Shown here: piece after piece, positions 2 through 63,231 of the stretch | How positions within the stretch are numbered: position 1 is the first letter of the stretch | How the letters are laid out: the number at the start of each line of letters is the position of its first letter | Source of the DNA: a phage | Sequence record: PZ583743.1 | Strand: one strand, 5' to 3' | Length of the DNA stretch: 64,000 nucleotides | Made by a program: the position numbers and the translations under genes | Notes under the pieces: generated by a model | The model's database searches: none | What the model was told of the DNA's origin: nothing | The model's input: only the letters and a program-made list of their open reading frames with translations

Positions 2-274
2 GGATCAATTTTCTATGCTCCGTATACAGAAGGTCTTGACTTAGATGACCCTGAACATGTAGGTGCATTTAAAGTTGTAGTTGATCCAGAAAGTTTGCAG
101 CCATCTATCGGTTTATTGGTTAGATATGCTTTATCTGCAAATCCTTACACTGTAGCAAAAGATGAAAAAGAAGCAAGAATAATTGATGGTGGAGACATGG
201 ATAAAATGGCGGGTCGTTCAGATTTGTCTGTTTTATTAGGTGTTAAGCTACCAAAAATTATCGTTGATGAATAA
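2..274 (+). CDS. 24: Capsid vertex protein gp24, C-terminal fragment (partial, enters from window edge)
   Basis: Open frame from window start to TAA at 272-274 (…VLLGVKLPKIIVDE*), followed by terminator hairpin; sits directly upstream of rnlB (24.1) as on the T4 map. Confidence 0.55.
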   Translation, partial: GSIFYAPYTEGLDLDDPEHVGAFKVVVDPESLQPSIGLLVRYALSANPYTVAKDEKEARIIDGGDMDKMAGRSDLSVLLGVKLPKIIVDE

Positions 275-3758: not shown

Positions 3759-5270
3759 ATGACTGACATTAAAGTACATTTTTATGATTTTAGTCACGTG
3801 AGAATTGATTGTGAAGAAAGTACATTTCATGAACTCCGTGATTTCTTTAGCTTTGAAGCTGATGGGTATCGTTTTAATCCGAAGTACAAATATGGTCATT
3901 GGGATGGACGAATCCGTCTTTTAGATTATAATCGCCTTCTTCCATTCGGCTTAGTCGGGCAAATTAAAAAGTTCTGTGATAACTTTGGCTATAAAGCTTG
4001 GATTGACCCACAGATTAACGAAAAAGAAGAATTATCAAGAAAAGATTTTGATGAATGGCTTTCTAAATTAGAAATCTATTCAGGAAATAAAAGAATTGAA
4101 CCGCATTGGTATCAAAAAGATGCAGTGTTCGAAGGATTAGTTAATCGTCGTAGAATTCTTAATCTTCCAACATCCGCAGGTAAATCCTTAATTCAAGCTT
4201 TGCTTGCGCGTTATTATTTGGAAAATTATGAAGGTAAAATTCTTATCATTGTTCCAACAACTGCTTTAACAACTCAGATGGCTGATGACTTTGTTGACTA
4301 TCGTTTATTCAGTCACGCAATGATAAAGAAAATTGGCGGTGGAGCATCAAAAGATGATAAATATAAAAATGATGCGCCAGTCGTTGTTGGTACATGGCAA
4401 ACTGTAGTAAAACAACCGAAAGAATGGTTCTCACAGTTTGGAATGATGATGAATGATGAATGCCATCTTGCTACAGGAAAAAGTATTTCATCTATCATAT
4501 CAGGTTTAAATAACTGCATGTTCAAATTCGGTTTGTCTGGTTCATTACGCGATGGCAAAGCCAATATCATGCAGTATGTTGGAATGTTCGGTGAAATATT
4601 TAAGCCAGTAACGACCTCTAAATTAATGGAAGATGGACAAGTAACTGAGTTAAAAATTAATAGTATTTTTCTTCGCTATCCCGATGAGTTCACTACTAAA
4701 TTAAAGGGAAAAACTTACCAAGAAGAAATAAAAATTATTACTGGACTCAGTAAAAGAAATAAATGGATCGCTAAATTAGCTATTAAACTTGCGCAAAAAG
4801 ATGAAAACGCTTTTGTCATGTTTAAGCATGTATCACATGGTAAAGCTATTTTCGATTTAATTAAAAATGAATACGATAAAGTTTATTACGTATCAGGGGA
4901 AGTTGATACCGAAACTCGAAACATAATGAAAACCTTAGCTGAAAACGGTAAAGGAATAATTATAGTAGCTAGTTATGGTGTATTTTCTACTGGTATTTCA
5001 GTTAAAAATCTGCATCACGTTGTTTTAGCACACGGTGTTAAATCTAAAATTATTGTATTGCAAACAATAGGTCGTGTATTACGTAAGCATGGTTCTAAAA
5101 CAATCGCAACGGTCTGGGACCTCATTGATGATTGCGGTGTTAAGCCAAAATCTGCTAATACGAAAAAGAAATATGTTCATTTGAACTATCTTTTAAAACA
5201 CGGCATTGATCGTATTCAGCGCTACGCAGATGAAAAATTTAATTACGTAATGAAAACAGTTAATTTATAA
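3759..5270 (+). CDS. uvsW: UvsW, SF2 RNA-DNA/DNA-DNA helicase
   Basis: 503 aa; Walker A PTSAGKS, DECH box (MNDECHLATGK); recognised as T4 UvsW. Confidence 0.93.
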   Translation: MTDIKVHFYDFSHVRIDCEESTFHELRDFFSFEADGYRFNPKYKYGHWDGRIRLLDYNRLLPFGLVGQIKKFCDNFGYKAWIDPQINEKEELSRKDFDEWLSKLEIYSGNKRIEPHWYQKDAVFEGLVNRRRILNLPTSAGKSLIQALLARYYLENYEGKILIIVPTTALTTQMADDFVDYRLFSHAMIKKIGGGASKDDKYKNDAPVVVGTWQTVVKQPKEWFSQFGMMMNDECHLATGKSISSIISGLNNCMFKFGLSGSLRDGKANIMQYVGMFGEIFKPVTTSKLMEDGQVTELKINSIFLRYPDEFTTKLKGKTYQEEIKIITGLSKRNKWIAKLAIKLAQKDENAFVMFKHVSHGKAIFDLIKNEYDKVYYVSGEVDTETRNIMKTLAENGKGIIIVASYGVFSTGISVKNLHHVVLAHGVKSKIIVLQTIGRVLRKHGSKTIATVWDLIDDCGVKPKSANTKKKYVHLNYLLKHGIDRIQRYADEKFNYVMKTVNL

Positions 5271-5286
5271 GGGCTTCGGCCCTTTG
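5271..5286 (+). terminator. GGGCUUCGGCCC tetraloop hairpin after uvsW (terminator or RNA stability element)
   Basis: GGGCttcgGCCC directly after the stop codon, followed by TTTGG; T-run is short. Confidence 0.45.
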
Positions 5287-5296
5287 GAGAAAAAAG

Positions 5297-14116: not shown

Positions 14117-14147
14117 TTTGTGTTCCTCATGTTATGTCAGTAAAATT

Positions 14148-14177
14148 ATTATAACACAACACGAGGGACTTGTAAAC
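14148..14177 (-). promoter_or_regulatory. T4-type early promoter (GTTTAC, 18 nt, TGtTATAAT)
   Basis: Minus strand reads GTTTAC-aagtccctcgtgttgtgt-TATAAT with an extended -10 TG; drives the 96-aa ORF. Confidence 0.6.
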
Positions 14178-16234
14178 TACATTTTGAACTTTTTAGACAT
14201 TTCGTTGATGTTAACCAAAGAAGCCAAGATTTGAGAAACTTCGTTTTCCTCTTCTTTTGATTCTTCTACAAGGAATTGATTAAACCCAGCCATTGGACGA
14301 ACTTCACCAGTTTCCATTAGATGGTCGCCATCATATACCGATTCTTCTAATTGTTCAGAAGGAGGAACGATTGTGCCTTCGATTAGATACTTGTTATAAG
14401 CAGTTTCTTTCATCATGTATGTACTCACTTTATTAATCTTCAGCAAAATTCCACGCGGTAAAATAACTTCAGCTTCTGACGGAAATCCTGATAAATGACC
14501 CGGAACGATAACTTTGATTCGCTCAGCTCCTTTAATTACCATACCCACGCTAGTTTCAGCATCTTCATTCGCATAAGCAGAATGACTGCCCATATGCATT
14601 AAATCTTCAGCATCAACGGAACCTTCTCCTTCACCAGAAAATACTGCGCTGGAATCATCTAGAGCCATATAGTTTTTACCATACTCACCGAAGATATTTG
14701 GTTTAAGCGATGTGGATACGAAGTTCTTAAAATAGAACATTTTATTTTCAATATTATGACGTAAAGTTTTAAAGGTAACTTCTTGGCCACGGTAAAGCGT
14801 AGTTCCTGGAGGAAGAACTGATCCTTTGGCAAAAGCAGAATCCATCGTCTCGATGTGTTTAATAGCTCGTTCCATATATTCTTCACGAGTAGAATCCGGT
14901 TTACCTAAAAGGAACGAGTTCATTTCAACATATGAATCTGCACAATAATCTTCAATTACATCAGACTCAGCCTGAGTTAATCCTTTTGGAGTTACTTCGG
15001 TGCTTGCGTATTCATATGCCTGAGCAGCAGATTCATTAATCAATTTATAAATGCCATTCATGACAAATTGAATAATAGCTACCTTTTCATCTGGCGTGGC
15101 TTTAGAACCTTTAACTAAATCATTGATAATTTTCTTAATAACATCAAAGCTATTAGAAATATTAATGTCAGCGAGATCGCTTAAAATTTTATCGGTTTTA
15201 TAATCAAAGAATTCTTTATTCTTTAAATATTCTTGAGAACCTTGATGTGTTATATCGCTCTGCAGTCTGATAGACGGATCACGTAAACGTGCATGGGCCA
15301 ATGCAATATGATTTCGGAAGCTTTCTAGTTCATAATCGTTAGATTTAAAACGAGAAGCACTTCTCATACCACCGATAGCTCCTTTGCCGAAGTTTGAACC
15401 AATCTGAATAACGCCAGAGTTCATTGGTCCTTCTGCTTTATATACCGGAACTTTAGATTCAAACTCTTGATATTTCTTAGCAGCGAAGCTATCACCCTGA
15501 AGTGAAGCATCGACGGTAGAGTATTGAGCTTGTGCTGCTAATCGACGACTAATTTTAGTTTTCTGAATAACAGCTTGATCTGTGCGCTTATCATTTTCTA
15601 AAGCAATAGAAGCAGCAACAGCAACAGCTTTAGGAACAGCATTACCTGTTTTAACATCTACATAAACATCACCAACCTTTGATTCAACCTTTGTGAATAA
15701 CTCAGTTGAAATAGGAGGTACACCTGGAATGTCTTCTAAATTGGCATTTTTACGGTAAACCATAATATATGCATATTTCTTATCATAGTCCCAGATTTCT
15801 TTTAAAAGAACATATCGACCTGCTCCTTTAGTACGTACTAAACGGTCAGCAATAACTTGAATTTGTCGAGCTGCGCCGTTTGTTTTACTCTTTAGTACGC
15901 GAAATAGGCATGCGTCAATTTTATACTGTTTCATTGTTTGAAGAGCAGTATCAAAAACCGCATTAATAACACCAATTGGATTTCCACCCAAGTTTTTAAG
16001 TTTAACTAATGATAGTTTCTCATTAACACCTATCATTACGATATGCATCATTTTATCGCCTGGCTTAACGTTTTTATTTGTATCACCGCCAGAGGTGTAT
16101 GTACAAAATCTAAATCCAGGAAGCACACTTTCTTCACCTGCTTGAATAGCAAAAATTTGAGGTATTTTATGCTTAGGATTTAAGTTAACAACCGGCGCCG
16201 AAGCGCCGTCAAATAATTCTGTAATAAGTTCCAT
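14177..16234 (-). CDS. Alt-like ADP-ribosyltransferase paralog (685 aa)
   Basis: N-terminal ~230 aa near-identical to the adjacent Alt (MELITELFD…); C-terminal ART motifs YRGQ (Arg), FVSTSL (STS), SEAEVILPRG (ExE); starts 3 nt after the upstream Alt stop. Confidence 0.85.
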   Translation of the reverse strand: MELITELFDGASAPVVNLNPKHKIPQIFAIQAGEESVLPGFRFCTYTSGGDTNKNVKPGDKMMHIVMIGVNEKLSLVKLKNLGGNPIGVINAVFDTALQTMKQYKIDACLFRVLKSKTNGAARQIQVIADRLVRTKGAGRYVLLKEIWDYDKKYAYIMVYRKNANLEDIPGVPPISTELFTKVESKVGDVYVDVKTGNAVPKAVAVAASIALENDKRTDQAVIQKTKISRRLAAQAQYSTVDASLQGDSFAAKKYQEFESKVPVYKAEGPMNSGVIQIGSNFGKGAIGGMRSASRFKSNDYELESFRNHIALAHARLRDPSIRLQSDITHQGSQEYLKNKEFFDYKTDKILSDLADINISNSFDVIKKIINDLVKGSKATPDEKVAIIQFVMNGIYKLINESAAQAYEYASTEVTPKGLTQAESDVIEDYCADSYVEMNSFLLGKPDSTREEYMERAIKHIETMDSAFAKGSVLPPGTTLYRGQEVTFKTLRHNIENKMFYFKNFVSTSLKPNIFGEYGKNYMALDDSSAVFSGEGEGSVDAEDLMHMGSHSAYANEDAETSVGMVIKGAERIKVIVPGHLSGFPSEAEVILPRGILLKINKVSTYMMKETAYNKYLIEGTIVPPSEQLEESVYDGDHLMETGEVRPMAGFNQFLVEESKEEENEVSQILASLVNINEMSKKFKM

Positions 16235-16237
16235 GAT

Positions 16238-18334
16238 TTATCCTTGAACGAACTTGTAAGGCATGTTTGTAATATCTATGCAAGACGCAATAATTCCAAG
16301 AGATGATTCTACTTTCTGTTTAACATTTGATGAAACAAATGATGCAAAGTCAACTCTGTCTTCTATTTCAATATCACCTGTCATTGCAACTACTTCACCA
16401 GTTTCCATTAGACGGTCACCGTCATAAATTACTGATTCGGTGAGTTCTTCCGTAGTCATAACTTCAGCTTGAATGAGTTTTGTATTATTAGATGTTGTTC
16501 CGTCATTATTAGAAGCATCAGTTATTTTATTAACTTTGACCATCAATCCGCGCGGTAGAATTACTTCAGCTTCTGTTGCTATTCCGAGACTTCCTGGATA
16601 TACAACATTAACTTTATGAGCTCCATCAATTGCCCATCCTATTTGAACTTTAACGTATTCAGGATTTTCTTTATACGCTCTTATTTCGTTTGGATTAATA
16701 GTTATTCCTTCTTCATTTTTATCAACTGTTAATTCATTACGAGCTTCTGGTTCTAAAAGACCGATACCAGCATGTGTAATTCCAAAACGTCCAAAAATGA
16801 TAGGAGTTAAAGAAGTAGATACAAAATTTCTGAAATAGAACACTTTATTTTTAACTAGCGCTTCGTATATAGGAGCAGTCATACTTTGAGCACGATAAAC
16901 TGTAATGCCTTCTGGTATACGGTCACCATTTTCAAAAGCTGAATCTAAATTATTTATCGCAGATTCAATTTCTTTTTCACTCATTACATCATATCGTTCT
17001 GGATTGTAGCGGCCTAAAAGAAGATTATTGATGTCAGTATATCCTGATCCACAATACTCTCTAATGCCGCGCTTTTGCGATGGAGTATATTTAGAACCAT
17101 CACGTGCAATGGTAATATCAATCATTGGACCTGCACCAATTCCAGAAAAACTATAAATCATTCGTTTGAGGAATTTAGTTTTTGCTGCGTTCCAGGAATT
17201 TTTAGTTATTTCTTCCCAGACTTCATCTGGCTGCCCTTTACGAGTTTTATTATGTTTATCAAGCCAATTATCTTTATATTCTTCAAAGAATTGATTAACA
17301 GCTGCTGCGTATTTCTCTAAACATTTTATTGAAGTAGTTGGTTCATTTTTAATCGCATTAAGAATTACATCTTTAATTTTTTCAGAAACTTCATTAACCT
17401 CACTTTTTGAAAAGAATTTATAGTCATAGTGAAGTTCATCTGCGGTTCCTTCGGCAATAATTTTTGCTGCCTTAGTTTTAGAAGCTAATGAATTAATTCC
17501 AAGCTTCATTTCTTCTGCTTCTGGAATTAAAGGAGCAGTAGCAGGTTTATTAAAATTAGCTGCGGTAGATTCATACTTCTGAAATAATTCACTTTCAAAT
17601 CTAGAAGATTCTAATGATTGACTTTGTGCAATTGCTCTACGGGAAATTTTAACTTTAACTATTACAGCTTGGTCAGAACGTTTATCATTTTCTTGCGCAA
17701 TAGATGCTGCAATTGCTTCATTTTTAGTTACTTGAGCTCCAGTATCTTTATTGATATAAACATCGCCGACCTTCGATTCAACTTTAGTAAAGAGCTCGGT
17801 ACTAATTTCCGGAACTCCTGGAATGTCTTCTAGTGATACATTTTTGCGATGTATAAGAATATATGCATACTTTTTATCATAATCCCAGAGTTCCTTAAGA
17901 AGGACGTATCTGCCACCTGAACGACTACGGATAAGTCTATCAGCAATAAGTTGAATTTGTCGAGCTTGACCAGCAGTTTTAGACTTAAGAATACGAAGCA
18001 TGCAGGCATCAATTTTATACTGACGCATCGTCTGCATTGCAACAGTAAAAACTGAATTGATATAATTAATTGGGCTTGGACCGAGACCTTTCAATTTAGC
18101 AATTGAACCTTTAGCAGTTAATGTAAAAGGAACAATGTGCATCATTTTATCGCCCATCTTTAGATCACGGTTAGTATCACCTCCAGATGTATAGGTACAT
18201 AAACGAAAGCCTGGTTGTTCAATTGCGTCATCAACATGAACTGAAAAAATTTGCGGTATTTTCTTCTTTGGATTTAAGTTTGTAATCGGAAGAGTAGTAT
18301 CTTCGTCAAATAATTCTGTAATGAGTTCCATCAT
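16238..18334 (-). CDS. alt: Alt, head-packaged ADP-ribosyltransferase (698 aa)
   Basis: MELITELFDEDTTLPITNLNPKK… N-terminus; ART motifs VYRAQ, FVSTSL, TEAEVILPRG; late promoter upstream; which of the two paralogs is orthologous to T4 alt is uncertain. Confidence 0.85.
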   Translation of the reverse strand: MMELITELFDEDTTLPITNLNPKKKIPQIFSVHVDDAIEQPGFRLCTYTSGGDTNRDLKMGDKMMHIVPFTLTAKGSIAKLKGLGPSPINYINSVFTVAMQTMRQYKIDACMLRILKSKTAGQARQIQLIADRLIRSRSGGRYVLLKELWDYDKKYAYILIHRKNVSLEDIPGVPEISTELFTKVESKVGDVYINKDTGAQVTKNEAIAASIAQENDKRSDQAVIVKVKISRRAIAQSQSLESSRFESELFQKYESTAANFNKPATAPLIPEAEEMKLGINSLASKTKAAKIIAEGTADELHYDYKFFSKSEVNEVSEKIKDVILNAIKNEPTTSIKCLEKYAAAVNQFFEEYKDNWLDKHNKTRKGQPDEVWEEITKNSWNAAKTKFLKRMIYSFSGIGAGPMIDITIARDGSKYTPSQKRGIREYCGSGYTDINNLLLGRYNPERYDVMSEKEIESAINNLDSAFENGDRIPEGITVYRAQSMTAPIYEALVKNKVFYFRNFVSTSLTPIIFGRFGITHAGIGLLEPEARNELTVDKNEEGITINPNEIRAYKENPEYVKVQIGWAIDGAHKVNVVYPGSLGIATEAEVILPRGLMVKVNKITDASNNDGTTSNNTKLIQAEVMTTEELTESVIYDGDRLMETGEVVAMTGDIEIEDRVDFASFVSSNVKQKVESSLGIIASCIDITNMPYKFVQG

Positions 18335-18572: not shown

Positions 18573-20029
18573 AGACCAGTTACCTCATGAAAATCACCAA
18601 ATACATCCTCGAATGTATTAGCTTTAGTTTTATCTTCACGTAAACGAATCGCAATCGGAAGAAATAATTTAACGTAATCAGTGCGGCCATCAGATTTTAA
18701 CCAACCGTTGCATTCGCACTCTAGAATTTTTCCAATATAATAATTTTGGTTTTCCATAATGCGAGTACGGTCAAGTTCATGTGATTTTACACCAGCTTTA
18801 TCTTTTAAACCTGAACCAGCATTTACCTTAATTTTTCCACACTCTGATTCAAGAATAAATCCACCTGCTTTAGTAGGGTCTTTACGGTGAGGATAAATTC
18901 CTACAATTTTTAAATCAACATCAATTACTTCTTTAAATTTATAGAGATTTTTTGAACGAGCATTTTCCCACAATCCATCGGTATTTTTGAGAATAATACC
19001 TTCAAGACCTCGGTCAATATATTTTTTATAAATTACCTTAGCTTCATCTAGGTTATTTACTACCTGGTTTTCAATTAAAATTACTTTATCATATCCTGAT
19101 GTCATTTGTTCTAGTTTAGAAAAACGTACATCATATTTTAAACGAAACGCCGGAAGACCGTATATTTCTACCAACGGGACATAATCCCAGACCTGAAACT
19201 TCATACATTTGGCTTCTTTTTCTGAAATAGTTCCCTTTAAAGATTTATTGGCGATTCCATTAGAAGCAGTACGAGATTCAGCTACTTCAGCAAACTCTTT
19301 AACTTTACTATTTTCAGGAGAGTCAAAAAGAAAATCTAGGCCTTCTGGCTCCTTTTCAACTTGCTCATGGTATACCAATTCGCCATCAATTAACACACCT
19401 TCTGGATGAATCTGGCGGGCTTCAGCAGTCATTTTGATTAACTCTTCCTTAAGAAGATCTAATCCTAGATATTCATTACCAGCTCGCGATAAAAGACGAA
19501 CATCATCTAATTCATCGCCTCGGACTTCAGCAAAACACCGAGCTCCATCTGCTTTTAACTGCGCAAAAGCTGGAAACTTGATATTCTTACTAATGCCTTT
19601 TTCATCATAAGAACTTGCCAGCATTTGAGGTTGTTCAGGAATTAAACCTGGCCAAACTTTGTTTGCAATAGATACTGAAGCACCACATTCAAGGTCTCGC
19701 ATCATAACTCGACGCAAAACTTCAACATCATCCTTTTTACCATCGGTGATATATCCAGTTAATTCCTCAATTGCTGCATTGCCAGTTAATTTCCGAGTAG
19801 CTAACGTGAATTCAATGAAGTCAAGCATATCGGTAATAGTCAGCATTCCAAAACTCTGGGTAGCAATACCAGGTTTAGGCCATTTCTTGATATAATACTG
19901 TAACCCACGAGAATAAGTCAGACGATATACTCGTTTAAGCAATTCATTATCTTTATTCTTTTCAAGAATTGCTTGCTTCTGCTTAGTTGAACCAATAGAT
20001 GCTATTTCATTTAGAATTTCAAGAATCAT
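18569..20029 (-). CDS. 30: ATP-dependent DNA ligase gp30
   Basis: 486 aa; adenylation motif KADGAR; recognised as T4 DNA ligase. Confidence 0.95.
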   Translation of the reverse strand: MILEILNEIASIGSTKQKQAILEKNKDNELLKRVYRLTYSRGLQYYIKKWPKPGIATQSFGMLTITDMLDFIEFTLATRKLTGNAAIEELTGYITDGKKDDVEVLRRVMMRDLECGASVSIANKVWPGLIPEQPQMLASSYDEKGISKNIKFPAFAQLKADGARCFAEVRGDELDDVRLLSRAGNEYLGLDLLKEELIKMTAEARQIHPEGVLIDGELVYHEQVEKEPEGLDFLFDSPENSKVKEFAEVAESRTASNGIANKSLKGTISEKEAKCMKFQVWDYVPLVEIYGLPAFRLKYDVRFSKLEQMTSGYDKVILIENQVVNNLDEAKVIYKKYIDRGLEGIILKNTDGLWENARSKNLYKFKEVIDVDLKIVGIYPHRKDPTKAGGFILESECGKIKVNAGSGLKDKAGVKSHELDRTRIMENQNYYIGKILECECNGWLKSDGRTDYVKLFLPIAIRLREDKTKANTFEDVFGDFHEVTGL

Positions 20030-23076: not shown

Positions 23077-23186
23077 TTTATTCTCCTTTGTTTGTGTAAG
23101 ATAATACTATCACAAAGGAACCACACTGTAAACAACTTTGTGCAATCTTTGGAAAATAAAAAAGGACTCCCGAAGGAGTCCTCAAC

Positions 23187-26487: not shown

Positions 26488-26549
26488 TTCAATTTCCTCA
26501 TTTGTTTTGGTAGAGCTATAATATCACAACTCTACCTTAAAGTAAACTA

Positions 26550-29810: not shown

Positions 29811-29841
29811 CATAAAGCCCTCATGTTATGTCAGTAAGTCT

Positions 29842-29871
29842 ACTATAACACAACACGAGGGACTTGTAAAC
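29842..29871 (-). promoter_or_regulatory. T4-type early promoter for alc (GTTTAC, 18 nt, TATAGT)
   Basis: Near-identical to the promoter at 14148-14177, including the 5'UTR sequence CUGACAUAACAUGAGG. Confidence 0.55.
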
Positions 29872-38229: not shown

Positions 38230-38254
38230 TTTATTCTCCTTAGTTGATAGGGTA

Positions 38255-38284
38255 ATAGTATCACACTACTACCCTTCTGTAAAC
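38255..38284 (-). promoter_or_regulatory. T4-type early promoter (GTTTAC, 18 nt, TACTAT)
   Basis: Minus-strand GTTTAC at 38279-38284 and -10 at 38255-38260, upstream of the 80-aa ORF. Confidence 0.45.
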
Positions 38285-38705: not shown

Positions 38706-38957
38706 TTATTGTTCAATCAATCCCATGTAAAATTCTGCGTCTTCAGAATCCATGCCGTCACAATACTCATTAGCCATAAAGCGGGTGAGGTCTTCAAGAG
38801 GGCCTTCAATGACAATAGAAAAATTGCAATAATTAGGATCATCGTGAATACTTGTGATACTAAGTCTAGTATAACGATTACGAATAATTTCTTCAATATA
38901 TTCAAAATCAACGATGTCAATATCAACTTTAGCCATATTATTTTCCTCTTTAATCAT
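38706..38957 (-). CDS. Hypothetical acidic protein (83 aa)
   Basis: ORF directly downstream of an early promoter cassette. Confidence 0.6.
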
Positions 38958-38967
38958 CAGCAGTATT

Positions 38968-39040
38968 GCCGATAGTTGTATAGTACCACAGTATGCTTTG
39001 GTTGTAAACCGTTTTGTGAAAAAATTTTTGAAATAAAAAA
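38968..39040 (-). repeat. Repeated terminator-UP element-early promoter cassette, copy 1 (contains GTTTAC at 39004-39009)
   Basis: About 70 nt near-identical to 55283-55356 and partly to 58905-58975 (…gttgatagttgtatagtaccacagtatgctttggttgtaaac…gttttgtgaaaaaa…tttgaaataaaaaa). Confidence 0.7.
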
Positions 39041-39059
39041 GGGGACCTCTAGGGTCCCC
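39031..39059 (-). terminator. Rho-independent terminator of gene 32 (GGGGACCCUAGAGGUCCCC + U-run)
   Basis: Perfect 7-bp GC stem followed by UUUUUUAUUUC on the minus strand, 20 nt after the gene 32 stop. Confidence 0.7.
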
Positions 39060-39081
39060 AATTAATTAGTAATATAATCTA

Positions 39082-39990
39082 TTAAAGGTCATTCAAAAGG
39101 TCATCCAGGTCCGTGTCATCAGCACTAGATGAACTGCCAGAGCTTGAGCTCATAAAATCATCTTCAGTTTTTGTTTTGAAGTCATCAACATTGAATGCAT
39201 CCAAATCATCAGCAACTTTATCGGCTTTCTTAGCAGCAGTTGCTGCGGCACCACCCATAGCAGCAGTTCCCATAACTTGACTGAACTTAGTGCTCAATTC
39301 TTCAAACGATTTGAATTTATCTTTAGAAGTCATTTCAGAAAGGTCAACCATTTGTTCGAACAGTTCTTTCTGGAAAGATTCATCATCAATGTTTGGAATC
39401 GCAGATTGATTCAGGAATTTAGATTCGTCGTAGTTACTAAAACCAGAAACTTGTTTAACTTTCAGTACAAAGTTAGCACCTTCCCACGGACAAGTTACAT
39501 CAACCGGGGTTTCACCCATTTCAACATCAACTGCAATCATTGCATTGATTTTATCCCAGATTTTCTTACCGAAGCGGTATTTAAATACTTTACCTTCATT
39601 TTCTGGAGCAGCTGGGTCTTTTACTACAAGAATGTTAGCCCAGTAAGAAGTTTTACGTTTAACAAGACCGTACTCTTTATTGTCAGTGTTATACAAATCA
39701 TTTTTATTGATGTACTGACATACTGGACAAGAATCGTAATCACCGTGGGTAGATGAACAGTTTTCAATATACCATTTACCATTTTTCTTGAAACCGTGAT
39801 TTACAAGAATTGCGAATGGTGCTTGTTCATCATTTTTAGACGGAAGAAAACGAATTACTGCTTGACCGTTACCCGCATTGTCGAGTTTCAGTTTCCACTC
39901 GCCTTTATCTTCAGAAGAAAAACCACCTTTATTTCCAGCCAGTTTAGCCATTTGTGCAGCGAGTTCAGCAGTAGATTTACGTTTAAACAT
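39082..39990 (-). CDS. 32: gp32 single-stranded DNA-binding protein
   Basis: 302 aa; acidic Ser/Asp-rich C-terminus (…[22 protein letters not shown]); recognised as T4 gp32. Confidence 0.95.
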
Positions 39991-54618: not shown

Positions 54619-55254
54619 TCACAGTTCAGATGCTACGGTGATTACAGCTTCAATGTTTTCTGCCGAGCGTTTAATGTCAAGATACACATTACCGTTTTTA
54701 GCGATTTTACATGACATTCCGATATCAGTAAATTTCTGAATATGATGTTCCATCATTTTGTATCCAAAAATTCGCATATTTCCATTGTTGTTAATTTCAA
54801 AATTACGAATTCCGTGAGTGCGTTTTTCTAAAATAGCGAGATAGTTACTACGATAAGTTTCAATCTTTTTAAGAACAAATCCATTTTCATCTAAAAGTTT
54901 TAACATGAAGTCTTTATCTTCTTCCATATCAGAAGTAATTTCGCGAGCTTTACGTGTTGCTCGTTTTTTCAACAGTTCAGGAGCATTTTCCTGTGCGTAT
55001 AAAGTTGCCGCATTTGAAATAATATCCTGAGCTTCACCAGTAATGATTAATCCATCACCAGATTTCTCCACCAGGCCTTTTTTAATCAATACCCCAATAT
55101 TACTATTAACTACTGCATTACCTAAATCTGGATGCACCTCACGAACTTCTGCAGCTGTAATGAAATCTTTCTTAGCAATGGTAATTAAAATCGCAGCAGT
55201 TTTTTCATTCAGAACATCGTTAGAAGCTTTGATGATGTAAGTTACTTTAGACAT
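54619..55254 (-). CDS. motA: MotA, activator of middle transcription
   Basis: 211 aa; recognised as T4 MotA. Confidence 0.93.
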   Translation of the reverse strand: MSKVTYIIKASNDVLNEKTAAILITIAKKDFITAAEVREVHPDLGNAVVNSNIGVLIKKGLVEKSGDGLIITGEAQDIISNAATLYAQENAPELLKKRATRKAREITSDMEEDKDFMLKLLDENGFVLKKIETYRSNYLAILEKRTHGIRNFEINNNGNMRIFGYKMMEHHIQKFTDIGMSCKIAKNGNVYLDIKRSAENIEAVITVASEL

Positions 55255-55282
55255 TTTCTAATCTCCGTAATTCTGTATCAGT

Positions 55283-55356
55283 AGTTGATAGTTGTATAGT
55301 ACCACAGTATGCTTTGGTTGTAAACAGTTTTGTGAAAAAAATTTTGAAATAAAAAA
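55283..55356 (-). repeat. Repeated terminator-UP element-early promoter cassette, copy 2 (motA promoter; GTTTAC at 55320-55325)
   Basis: Near-identical to 38968-39040; -10 TACTAT at about 55296-55301; A/T-rich UP element. Confidence 0.7.
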
Positions 55357-55376
55357 GGGAGAGCCTCAGCTCTCCC
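55347..55376 (-). terminator. Terminator GGGAGAGCUGAGGCUCUCCC + U-run downstream of gene 52
   Basis: 8-bp GC stem followed by UUUUUUAUUUC on the minus strand. Confidence 0.65.
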
Positions 55377-55527
55377 TAAAATTACTGCATGACTGTGATA
55401 ACTGTCATGATAACACGTTGAATGCCGAACGCAAGAAGACCTCCTGCTACGGCTGGAACAACACCTAGCCCCGCTAGTAAAATGCCACCAGATACTAATG
55501 CCGCGCTTGTAATACCAATGAATGGAC

Positions 55528-56856
55528 TCATTTGATTTCCTCTAAATCTTTGGTGTATTCGGTAACTACATCAGTAGTTTTCCAATATTCGTTTTCTTCT
55601 TTTTTAGCTTTAGCTTCTTCAGCAAGTTTCTTTGCTTCATCGGAAGTCATATGAAAAATATTCATTCCGACTAGTTTATCAACATAAGAAGAATACATAT
55701 CAATTTTAGAAAGTTCTTCGGTCAGTTCTTTGCGAGTTTTACCCTGCACAACAATTTCACCTGAAATTACTTTCTTAATGAAATGTGCCTTGGCAAAGGC
55801 TAAACGAAATGCTGATTCAGTTTCTTTAATTTTGTTATCAATTCGTTTTTGGACGTAAGTTTTACGAACTTCAACAAAGTCTTTAATTAAATCAACTACG
55901 TTATCGTAAACTTGTAGCTTTCCTTTCTCATTAATGACTGTAATATTCTGAGAACGACGCTCAATCAACCCGAAGTCTTTCATGATTTTTGCATGGCGTT
56001 CTTCTTCGTTATCACTCAAAGAGTATTCTTTGCGGAATTTAACTTTAAATCCAAAACCATGCTCACCGCAAGCATCATCCCATGTAATGAAGCCTTTATC
56101 TTCAAGCGGGTCTAAGATTTTACTCACGTAAGTTTCACGATCATACTTATACGGAATTTCAGTGATATTCATTTGAGTTCGTGAAGTAAACTTGTACGTT
56201 CCACGAATTTCATATTGACCATCAATTTCAACGACTTCACCACGAAATTCTGGGAATTCTACCTTCGGTTTAGTTACTTTCTTTCCTTGAAGAGCTTGTA
56301 GTACAGCTTTCTTGACAGAAGAAACACTATGAGGAAGAATGTAAGTTGCATAACCAGTTGCAATACCGGAAACACCATTAAGAAGAACAGTAGGAATAAT
56401 AGGCAAATAGAAAGCAGGAGGAATGTGTTCTTTATCTTGATGTACCGGAGCATATTCAGTATCTTTATATACGTTATAGAAATTTTTACTTACGCGAGCA
56501 AAAATATAACGACTTGCTGCTGCTTTTTGGACGGTACGAGAACCAAAGTTTCCTTGGCCGTCTAACAAAGGAAAGTTATTATTCCATGTGTTAGCCATCA
56601 AAGCCCCCGCATCTTGTGCAGAGTTTTCACCATGATGATATCCAAGGTCTGCTACACCACCTGCAATAGAAGCAAGTTTGTGAAACTTATCTTTATTTCC
56701 CCGTGCCAAATCAAGAGCTCGAGCAATAACAAATCGTTGAACTGGCTTAAATCCATCAATCATATTTGGAATAGCACGATTTTCAACCGTGTACATAGCA
56801 TAAGCCAATGCTTCATTATCAATGATACTTTTTAAATCGCGATTATTCAGTTGCAT
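55528..56856 (-). CDS. 52: Topoisomerase II medium subunit gp52
   Basis: 442 aa; GyrA-like active-site region; recognised as T4 gp52. Confidence 0.93.
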   Translation of the reverse strand: MQLNNRDLKSIIDNEALAYAMYTVENRAIPNMIDGFKPVQRFVIARALDLARGNKDKFHKLASIAGGVADLGYHHGENSAQDAGALMANTWNNNFPLLDGQGNFGSRTVQKAAASRYIFARVSKNFYNVYKDTEYAPVHQDKEHIPPAFYLPIIPTVLLNGVSGIATGYATYILPHSVSSVKKAVLQALQGKKVTKPKVEFPEFRGEVVEIDGQYEIRGTYKFTSRTQMNITEIPYKYDRETYVSKILDPLEDKGFITWDDACGEHGFGFKVKFRKEYSLSDNEEERHAKIMKDFGLIERRSQNITVINEKGKLQVYDNVVDLIKDFVEVRKTYVQKRIDNKIKETESAFRLAFAKAHFIKKVISGEIVVQGKTRKELTEELSKIDMYSSYVDKLVGMNIFHMTSDEAKKLAEEAKAKKEENEYWKTTDVVTEYTKDLEEIK

Positions 56857-58304: not shown

Positions 58305-58679
58305 AGTAAGCGTTTAATACATCAATCATTAAAACGATTGGGAATATACTTAAAACTACTAGTATTATAACTACATTCCATATAGCTTTAACAATCTTTT
58401 TCATTTTCTATTCCTCCGTAGTTGATAGAGTAATAATACCACAGAGGAACAGTCTTGTAAACAACTTTTTTAAAAATATTCGTAATAAATGTGAATACCA
58501 ATCACCACTGCCGAAACTTGTGCAACCCACCACGCACAAGCAATAAGCACAGAATTAAAAATTTTCATAATAACCTCATCACAAAAGTAAATGTTAAACA
58601 AATTAATGGAATACTAATTAACCAAACGAAACACCACCATAATGAACTCATAGTTCAATCTCAACGATTTTCATTTTAC

Positions 58680-58898
58680 TCAATAATCCGCTAAAAGATC
58701 GACGATTGCATCACGAAGACACTTATTCGCAATACGTTTAAGAGCAATTTCAGTTTCTGGAGCATTTTGAATAATCATTGAATTCAATTCAGCCTCAGCA
58801 AACTGAAGTTCTTTAACTAATTCAGCTTTATATTTTCCTTGCCCTTTCTTAGCTTTTGCTCGTTTTAATTCAGCTGTAGTAAACATTTTATTCTCCAA
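58680..58898 (-). CDS. Hypothetical protein (72 aa)
   Basis: ORF directly downstream of an early promoter cassette. Confidence 0.6.
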   Translation of the reverse strand: MENKMFTTAELKRAKAKKGQGKYKAELVKELQFAEAELNSMIIQNAPETEIALKRIANKCLRDAIVDLLADY

Positions 58899-58904
58899 AT
58901 CCGT

Positions 58905-58975
58905 ATCAGTTGATAGTTGTATAGTACCACAGTCCTTGTGGTATGTAAACCGTTTTGTGAAAATTTTTTAAATGG
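58905..58975 (-). repeat. Repeated UP element-early promoter cassette, copy 3 (GTTTAC at 58945-58950)
   Basis: …cagttgatagttgtatagtaccacag…gtatgtaaaccgttttgtgaaaa… related to copies 1 and 2. Confidence 0.6.
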
Positions 58976-59525
58976 AAAGATACCATCCGTTGTAGTTGCT
59001 TTTTCTTACAACCTTACGAAGGTCTTCTCTATCACCGATGAACTTCGGAGTGTACTGGATGACACCTGGATGAATTTCTTTAGTGTTGAATATAATTATA
59101 CAGTCAGCGACTTGGTGATTCAGAATGGGCCCTAGATTTATTCCAGAACCGTATGGATACTCCCCGCTGCATCCGGTTGTTACCGAAATCCAACGTGAGT
59201 CAGTTTGATGTGTTTTGACTTCTACACGAAGCCCACAGTATTTTGGATGCGCCAATACATCCCATGCGTAAGTATACGGGTCATTAACATCCTCTTGGCC
59301 TTTGTTAACATATCCGCTTAGCCAATCTGCTACAAAAAATTCTGCGTACACAGCGATACGGCATCTTTCAATAACTTCTGCTTTATCCTGATTAGGATTT
59401 TGTTTTAAAGAGTATCTTGCTGTATCAGCAATTTTGACCTTCATTTCACTAGTCAAATCATTGTTCGATAGGGTAAATGTCGGAATCTGAAATAGTCTCT
59501 GTAAACCTGGATTCGTTTTCTGCAT
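58968..59525 (-). CDS. denB: Endonuclease IV (DenB)
   Basis: 185 aa; T4 DenB length and position. Confidence 0.88.
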   Translation of the reverse strand: MQKTNPGLQRLFQIPTFTLSNNDLTSEMKVKIADTARYSLKQNPNQDKAEVIERCRIAVYAEFFVADWLSGYVNKGQEDVNDPYTYAWDVLAHPKYCGLRVEVKTHQTDSRWISVTTGCSGEYPYGSGINLGPILNHQVADCIIIFNTKEIHPGVIQYTPKFIGDREDLRKVVRKSNYNGWYLSI

Positions 59526-63176: not shown

Positions 63177-63201
63177 TTCAATATCCTCATTTGCCCAATT
63201 A

Positions 63202-63231
63202 ATTATACCACATCCTTGTGGTAAAGTAAAC
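63202..63231 (-). promoter_or_regulatory. T4-type early promoter (GTTTAC, 18 nt, TATAAT)
   Basis: Minus-strand GTTTAC at 63226-63231 and TATAAT at 63202-63207, upstream of the 67-aa ORF. Confidence 0.5.

Follow-up and report, generated by a model that had tools for sequence, protein, structure and literature searches.

Early promoters of bacteriophage T4 have the structure UP/-35/TGn/-10 with additional conserved regions (PMC2988021). Cassettes of a terminator and an early promoter are known from T4-type phages as PeSLs (promoter-early stem-loops), and a role in the shuffling of ORFs has been proposed for them (Arbiol et al. 2010, PMC2839356; Comeau et al. 2014, PMC4122927). The PST/T4 PeSL consensus is TTTACW-N17-TAYWAT, with a stem-loop upstream and the SD and ATG downstream (PMC4122927). 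A further parallel is the concerted evolution of dispersed repeats, such as bacterial rRNA operons, where paralogues exceed orthologues in similarity, and the tracts are short and bounded by homology (PMC8022953).

Here we consider three similar modules in a 64,000-nt stretch of phage DNA (the window, by which the whole analyzed stretch is meant), located upstream of frd.3 (copy 1), upstream of motA (copy 2) and downstream of denB (copy 3). They resemble PeSLs in the combination of a stem-loop, an A/T-rich region, sigma-70-like -35 and -10 boxes, SD and ATG, and in being adjacent to ORFs that differ between close relatives, with recombination proposed to occur between copies. They differ from PeSLs in that copy 3 lacks the GC stem-loop, and in that the evidence from the window is comparative and concerns short-patch conversion between copies 16 kb apart rather than excision and integration of mini-circles. 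Very probably, the three repeats are sigma-70 immediate-early promoters orthologous to those of frd.3, motA and ndd.6 in T4, and their likeness results from selection combined with short-patch exchange.

Phage identity and orthology to T4

Sequence matches identify the window as a Tequatrovirus (T4-like phage). It gives matches of 97-100% to Tequatrovirus records. With a 2-kb piece surrounding copy 1, hundreds of genomes of this genus are matched at 90-98%, and with 136 nt surrounding copy 1, identity to phage vb_EcoM_bov9_1 is 100%. ORFs for gp32, frd.3, MotA, motA.1, gp52 and DenB are present in the window, and all genes around the repeats are on the minus strand (Table 1); gene names and gene order follow the T4 map. 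An assembly artefact was rejected, as the same configuration recurs in hundreds of records. The frd.3 product aligns to positions 317-391 of the 391-position profile phrog_1764, which also covers gp32, so that in some genomes or annotations both proteins appear fused or clustered in one family.

The reference for the promoters consisted of the T4 sequence, GenBank record Z48569 and features of other annotators. In T4 (NC_000866), the same three promoters occupy the same places relative to 32/frd.3, motA.1/motA and denB, and the T4 motA record Z48569 annotates -35 gtttaca and -10 tactat, which are exactly the bases of copy 2. Independent annotations in fPS-65 and SA21RB place an early promoter at these loci, plus a terminator where present. 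The T4 promoters of frd.3, motA and ndd.6 share with those of the window the -35 GTTTAC, N14, GTGG-TACTAT, ACAACT, the UP element and their positions. The differences are that the T4 frd.3 promoter has its own spacer AAGCATAAAGCTTT with the palindrome CATAAAGCTTTATG, whereas the frd.3 promoter of the window carries the motA spacer, and that copy 3 is followed by a T2-type 68-aa ORF in the window and by ndd.6 in T4. The palindrome in the T4 spacer (L002 2347-2376) is perfect over 14 bp, contains a HindIII site and abuts the -10 region.

In RB69, from the genus Mosigvirus, gene 32 is likewise followed, and motA preceded, by a terminator and an early promoter. The RB69 promoters belong to another subtype (...AAACATGATAyTATAGACyTATCAA, 16-bp spacer), and the two again resemble each other. 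As the sites are conserved in T4, across the genus and in RB69, the cassettes are old fixed parts of the gene order and not insertions. An earlier suggestion that the module is mobile or recombining is supported in a limited sense for recombination, as considered below (spacer alleles exchanged between the frd.3 and motA loci, ORF cassettes varying beside copies 2 and 3), but not for insertion of mobile elements. A small non-autonomous mobile element (MITE-like or a site-specific cassette), inserted at three places, could seem to be indicated by the compact ~75-nt unit in several same-orientation copies, by the variation of the adjoining ORF cassettes between genomes, and by the experimental detection of PeSL mini-circles in RB49/phi1 (PMC2839356). 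This origin is, however, extremely improbable, given that no terminal inverted repeats, target duplications or association with a recombinase were seen, the module boundaries are those of the promoter itself (from the T-run to +3), and the three copies are found at matching, orthologous sites in T4 and nine more genomes. Moreover, no empty sites were found, RB69, although of another genus, carries terminator-promoter cassettes both next to gene 32 and next to motA, and the 136-nt query matches only 4-7 places per genome. The mobile element was rejected as a candidate on account of the missing terminal inverted repeats and target duplications and the conserved positions.

Structure of the promoters and terminators

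Table 1. Coordinates of the promoters, terminators, neighbouring genes and other features; positions refer to the window unless another sequence is named.
Feature	Coordinates	Strand	Details
gp32	39082-39990	-	upstream neighbour of copy 1
Gene 32 intrinsic terminator	39035..39059	-	hairpin GGGGACC-CTAGA-GGTCCCC 39041-39059, T6 39035-39040; terminator scan, RNA fold
Copy 1, frd.3 early promoter	38971..39043	-	repeat family D2, promoter scan, T4 orthologue
Copy 1, upstream parts		-	UP 39010-39034, -35 GTTTAC 39004-39009, spacer 38990-39003, GTGG 38986-38989
Copy 1, downstream parts		-	-10 TACTAT 38980-38985, discriminator ACAACT 38974-38979, predicted +1 38973
frd.3 leader and ORF	38706..38970	-	leader 38937-38970, SD AGAGGA; ORF 38706-38936, 76 aa; phrog_1764, orthologue of T4 frd.3
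motA.1	55382-55531	-	upstream neighbour of copy 2
Terminator after motA.1	55350..55377	-	hairpin AGGGAGAGC-TGAG-GCTCTCCCT 55356-55377, T-run; terminator scan
Copy 2, motA early promoter	55287..55359	-	-35 GTTTAC 55320-55325, -10 TACTAT 55296-55301, predicted +1 55289; D2, promoter scan
motA leader and ORF	54619..55286	-	leader 55255-55286, SD GGAG, possible RegB site; ORF 54619-55254
denB	58968-59525	-	upstream neighbour of copy 3
Copy 3, early promoter downstream of denB	58905..58985	-	-35 GTTTAC 58945-58950, -10 TACTAT 58921-58926, predicted +1 58914
Copy 3 leader and 68-aa ORF	58680..58904	-	SD GGAGAATAAAA; ORF 58680-58886, phrog_4535; leader homologous to motA leader
Related early promoter, ndd.5 type	58433..58462	-	spacer akin to frd.3 allele C of other genomes
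Related early promoter downstream of frd.2	38255..38284	-	start region CTATCAAC in common (repeat family D3)
Sites of dyad symmetry	63181-63227, 58900-58946, 58412-58458, 38234-38280, 29821-29867, 26497-26543, 23083-23129, 14127-14173	-	
Repeats spaced by ~2.09 kb	16038-16195 / 18132-18289		together with the repeats of the next row, 72-94% identity; families D1, D10, D12, D19
Other repeats spaced by ~2.09 kb	14286-14335 / 16377-16426, 14429-14478 / 16526-16575, 16207-16237 / 18304-18334		
75-aa ORFx of other genomes	L004 18170-18397, L006 18193-18420, L007 (PM107) 18797-19024, L008 19069-19296		

The minus-strand sequence of copy 1 is GGGGACC-CTAGA-GGTCCCC, TTTTTT, ATTTCAAAAATTTTTTCACAAAACG, GTTTAC, AACCAAAGCATACT, GTGG, TACTAT, ACAACT, ATCGGC...AGAGGAAAATAATATG (frd.3). 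All three copies contain GTTTAC-N14-GTGGTACTAT, with the UP element AAAAATTTTTTCACAAAAC(G/T) immediately upstream of GTTTAC, and all their functional elements are on the minus strand. They agree exactly with GTTTAC(N14)gtggTAttaT, which other annotators cite as the T4 early consensus, and the promoter scan gives TTTACA-17-TACTAT with TG before the -10 box in each case. The PeSL consensus TTTACW-N17-TAYWAT, followed by the SD and the start codon, is found in all three, the SD and ATG being 35-45 nt downstream. As had been noted before, the copies precede a small early ORF or motA, namely frd.3, motA and the 68-aa ORF.

The gene 32 terminator is situated 22 nt past the gp32 stop and is annotated as such in SA21RB, fPS-65 and KAW1E185. 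The copy 2 terminator hairpin has a 9-bp stem (fold z = -4.45). At copy 3, nothing resembling a terminator came out of the terminator scan and RNA fold apart from a weak AU hairpin, which lies within denB, and the upstream A/T part overlaps the 3' end of denB (last codons; stop 58968-58970). The orthologue of copy 3 in T4 is the promoter before ndd.6, and an early promoter is annotated here in fPS-65 as well. The stem-loop just upstream of the promoter is thus present in copies 1 and 2, where terminator and promoter follow each other directly as a PeSL-type cassette, and absent from copy 3, so that the description as a cassette fits two copies only. The first-pass annotation had placed each copy directly after a GC hairpin and read all three as terminator-UP-early promoter; for copies 1 and 2 both statements stand (hairpin and T-run), while copy 3 stands as an early promoter without a terminator.

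Each promoter combines an A/T-rich UP element and the -35 box GTTTAC(A) with a 17-bp spacer, the extended -10 box TGG-TACTAT and the discriminator ACAACT, with transcription predicted to start ~7 nt past the -10 box and to proceed through a leader of ~35-40 nt to the SD and ATG. The predicted starts in Table 1 were placed 7 nt after the -10 box from the sequence. Judging by what is known about T4, the host RNA polymerase would use these promoters as soon as infection begins and would need no phage factors for this. At copies 1 and 2, the intrinsic terminator would end the upstream unit (gene 32 and 52-motA.1, respectively) a few bases before the promoter restarts transcription.

In the leaders of copies 2 and 3, the SD contains GGAG, and the SD of the copy 3 leader matches, in our own reading of the sequence, the RegB site consensus GGAGRAYARAA (consensus from PMC3014915). 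The Rfam scan of positions 37000-61000 gave no known RNA family, so the interpretation as an sRNA or riboswitch was dropped.

Dyad symmetry in the spacer/-10/start region was observed in 10 of 11 early promoters (DNA folding z from -1.3 to -3.3; sites in Table 1). It takes two forms, a hairpin within the spacer that ends in the extended -10 box (ACCAC...GTGGT), and a hairpin around the -10 hexamer, whose arms covary between promoters (GGTAGAG/CTCTACC; GGGTAGTA/TACTATTACCC; in RB69, GATAGGGCT/AGCCCTATC). The 3' arm covers the SD at 58462, 23133 and 14177/29871, and hence the SD could be sequestered in read-through transcripts and free in promoter-initiated ones. Sequestration of the SD in read-through transcripts is known for the T4 late genes e and soc. 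Nothing relevant to dyad symmetry in T4 early promoters was found in the part of the T4 literature covered.

Several probably spurious features were noted around the promoters. A 36-aa 'hypothetical protein' is annotated across the gene 32 terminator and the frd.3 promoter in T2 (PV648364 CDS0204, L003 1748-1858) and PM107 (PM107_140, L007 1748-1858), and three look-alike plus-strand ORFs with TTG starts (MYSTTV...CK.FCE...) arise from the repeat itself (38976-39065, 55292-55468, 58917-59135); the 36-aa calls and the three TTG ORFs are most likely spurious. In the KAW1E185 record NC_054922.1 (L009, ~5084-5290), a poly-A run and the Nextera adapter CTGTCTCTTATACACATCT lie beside a duplicated promoter from upstream of rnh, and this stretch is probably an assembly artefact in that record.

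Extent of the repeat and the promoter background

In the repeat search over the 64,000-nt window, the three copies form family D2, in which copies 1 and 2 are 97% identical over 73 nt; that this pair is almost identical and the third copy diverged had been noted before. Copy 3 (58912-58984) is 73% identical to copy 1, taken as the reference. The exact 18-mer GTTGTATAGTACCACAGT occurs three times (38975, 55291, 58916), with 0.03 occurrences expected from shuffles, and the motif TTTTCACAAAAC.GTTTAC + TACTATACAACTATC is confined to the three copies.

Self-comparison demonstrated that the likeness is not limited to the -35 and -10 boxes. The similarity of copies 1 and 2 begins with the last CCC of the terminator and takes in the T-run, the UP element, the -35 box, the 17-bp spacer, the -10 box and the discriminator as far as +3, beyond which the leaders diverge. 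Copies 2 and 3 have in common the proximal UP element, the -35 and -10 boxes and the discriminator, and also the leader down to the SD, ATCAACT(ACT)GATAC.GA.TT..GGAGA. The spacer of copy 3 matches those of copies 1 and 2 in 10 of 18 positions.

About a dozen early-promoter-like sites of the window, compared in a 90-nt frame, served as the background. In this frame, copy 1 is 84% identical to copy 2, and copy 3 is 63-64% identical to either, while pairs among the remaining sites reach 38-64%, the best unrelated pairs being 14177/29871 (64%) and 38284/58462 (62%). Hence copy 3 is only slightly above the family background, and copies 1 and 2 are far above it. Another near-identical pair of early promoters, 14125-14177 and 29819-29871 (family D6), has 92% identity over 53 nt at a distance of 15.7 kb, which hints at subfamilies of promoters with a common spacer as a general feature of the genome. 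Repeats of another kind, spaced by ~2.09 kb (Table 1), hint at a tandem array of three paralogous genes between 14 and 18.3 kb.

One cause of the likeness would be selection acting on the whole region contacted by RNA polymerase, from -60 to +3. Selection could be imagined as the only cause, strong promoters being maintained independently under constraint from -60 to +3 with no exchange between them; consistent with this are the conserved positions of T4 early promoters beyond the -35 and -10 boxes (PMC2988021), and the fact that copy 3 resembles the other two mainly at consensus-type elements (spacer 10/18), with its 63-64% identity being close to the 62-64% of the best unrelated pairs. The spacers of copies 1 and 2, considered in the next section, make selection without exchange quite improbable.

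Spacer alleles at the frd.3 and motA promoters

The spacers of six early-promoter loci in ten Tequatrovirus genomes were tabulated in full. At five loci (motA.1/motA, denB-downstream, ndd.5, frd.2-downstream and asiA), each locus has a 14-nt spacer of its own that hardly varies from genome to genome, while spacers of different loci match in 7-10 of 18 positions. Free variation between loci, combined with stability within each of them, means that no single spacer sequence is imposed, which argues against selection alone. The gene 32/frd.3 locus has three spacer allele classes. Allele A, of the motA type, AACCAAAGCATACT(GTGG), is present in the window and KAW1E185; allele B, AAGCATAAAGCTTT(ATGG), in T4 and SA21RB; and allele C, ATCC(C/T)TGT(C/T)CTTC(C/T)(ATGG), in T2, fPS-65, PM107, ACG-C40, VIPECOOM02 and UGKSEcP1, where it diverges in the last genome to ACCCCTGTTCTTCT(GTGG). 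This locus also has the lowest identity of orthologues (mean 86%, compared to 93-95% at three other loci).

At the motA locus, spacer A is found in 8 of 9 genomes, with B instead in VIPECOOM02. In the window and KAW1E185, A is thus present at both the frd.3 and motA loci, and all 18 of 18 spacer bases are identical. When the frd.3 and motA modules of one genome are compared with each other, they are 97% identical in the window, 91% identical in T4 and 77-89% identical in seven other genomes. The occurrence of one 14-nt spacer at two loci in some genomes, and of two spacer types at swapped loci in others, again contradicts selection without exchange.

The comparison with the close relative SA21RB points in the same direction. 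Of 47 differences in 1700 nt, eight form one tight cluster within 38989-39010, flanked by 118 nt on the left and 183 nt on the right with no differences (Poisson estimate P ~3e-7). The seven in-spacer differences make copy 1 identical to copy 2, whereas the eighth (39010) does not match copy 2.

As the allele of one locus is flanked on both sides by unique sequence of the other locus, the exchange was non-allelic, with both junctions inside the ~75-nt module. By its sequence pattern, this points to gene conversion of a short patch, or else to a double crossover when two genomes co-infect a cell, involving copies 16 kb apart, and the homology used may be read as ~20 nt from the -10 box to +3 on one side and ~45 nt of the -35 box and UP element on the other. 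The second cause of the likeness would therefore, in our proposal, be the swapping of short patches between paralogous copies by ectopic homologous recombination (gene conversion). In this lineage, a patch of ~13-22 nt with the motA-promoter spacer would have replaced the frd.3 one, raising the identity to 97% from the 77-91% seen in eight other genomes. Such a patch would account for the near-identity of the two copies in this phage and not in T4.

In a census of 50,697 phage records, based on BLAST identity of short queries, the frd.3 leader with spacer A is matched at full length with 100% identity in 11 records and with 98.6% in 6 more; spacer A at frd.3 may have had a single origin and then spread by ordinary homologous recombination. 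The reverse combination, the motA.1 terminator with spacer B, is found in VIPECOOM01-03 (100%) and LF73P3 (98.7%). Since VIPECOOM02 has no B at frd.3, the event that brought B to motA took place in an ancestor or between co-infecting phages. Neither spacer B nor spacer C was found when the window was searched for them, and thus no donor or remnant is present there. Exact-pattern scans of IMG/VR for combinations of terminator and spacer yielded zero swapped ones, but the normal one was found in only 3 contigs, this collection being too sparse for a census, so that the zero counts carry no information.

Allele C and the ndd.5 promoter spacer have CTGTTCTTCC in common, in register, with 11-14 of 18 positions matching, and the ndd.5 promoter of UGKSEcP1 has gained the discriminator ACAACTATC of the three-copy subfamily. 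By sequence similarity, then, the alleles of the post-gene-32 promoter would be akin to the motA promoter (A) and the ndd.5 promoter (C), with B being a third type. We lean towards the view that early promoters within ~20 kb in T4-like phages form an exchange network, in which spacer and discriminator patches would be copied non-allelically via ~20-45 nt of homology, with the post-gene-32 promoter as a recurrent recipient.

ORF cassettes and segments between the copies

Gain, loss or replacement of ORFs between close relatives is seen beside copies 2 and 3. The first ORF downstream of copy 3 differs between genomes, and a swap of ndd.4/.5 has been described in this region by Comeau et al. (PMC4122927). 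Between motA.1 and motA, an extra 75-aa ORF (ORFx, phrog_10955) is present in UGKSEcP1, VIPECOOM02, PM107 and ACG-C40 and absent from the window and T4. ORFx is flanked by the copy 2 promoter on one side and by an RB69-type early promoter, proximal to motA, on the other, and both are followed by an identical leader CTATCAAATAAATGAACTGAAAC. Relative to the window, the left breakpoint is right after ACAACTATCAA, inside the conserved start region. Judged from these sequences, the ORF cassettes next to copies 2 and 3 vary in the manner already published for PeSLs. For the simple excision product of ORFx, expected from recombination of the flanking promoter/leader repeats, there is no full-length match of at least 99% in the 50,697 phage records, and the T4-type motA leader therefore does not represent this product.

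The first-pass annotation had also observed that same-orientation copies flank the tail-fibre genes and could mediate duplications or deletions. The former is correct, with copies 1 and 2 flanking genes 32-59-33-dsbA-rnh-34..38-t-asiA-arn-motA (order from the T4 map). The latter would make the copies active substrates for large rearrangements that delete or duplicate the intervening 16.3 or 3.6 kb, which we consider unlikely, even though they are direct repeats of 73 nt with 97% identity, and PeSL-flanked segments are excised as circles in RB49/phi1 (PMC2839356). The T4 recombination system is also established to be very active. As for large REARRANGEMENTS, the segment between copies is neither missing nor duplicated in any genome inspected, and the full gene order is kept in every record inspected; the 16-kb tail-fibre block is intact, and no simple excision product was found at copy 2. 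The segments hold genes 32, 33, 34-38, motA and 52, the deletion of which should, from what is known of T4, be lethal or crippling. The T4 headful has a terminal redundancy of ~3%, which a 16-kb duplication exceeds. Considering the essential genes and the headful limit together, intact segments are what T4 biology would lead one to expect. Comparison of the intergenic regions across T-even phages, proposed in the same annotation, revealed exchange of spacer alleles between loci, while the modules themselves remain at orthologous sites across the genus.

Implications

T4 early promoters and PeSLs have already been published, so the feature itself is known, and the picture of T4 gene expression remains unchanged, the early promoters having been catalogued. 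The evidence for spacer swaps, being comparative, would be a small extension of known PeSL/T4 biology; it was not found described in the part of the T4 literature covered, where nothing relevant to gene conversion between T4 promoters was found either. The term 'gene conversion' has no occurrences in PMC2839356 and is absent from the covered part of PMC4122927. Compared to the concerted evolution of rRNA operons, which it resembles in the greater similarity of paralogues and in short homology-bounded tracts, the exchange considered here has short homology arms (~20 and ~45 nt) and converts a promoter spacer instead of a gene.

Annotation pipelines sometimes call spurious small ORFs across early promoters. 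Natural isolates give sequence-level evidence of cassettes exchanging sequence between distant loci, and short-patch conversion, as an event of another kind, lends support to the recombination model of PeSLs. If the spacer tunes promoter strength or responsiveness to Alt, promoter alleles would be shuffled in this way without touching the genes.
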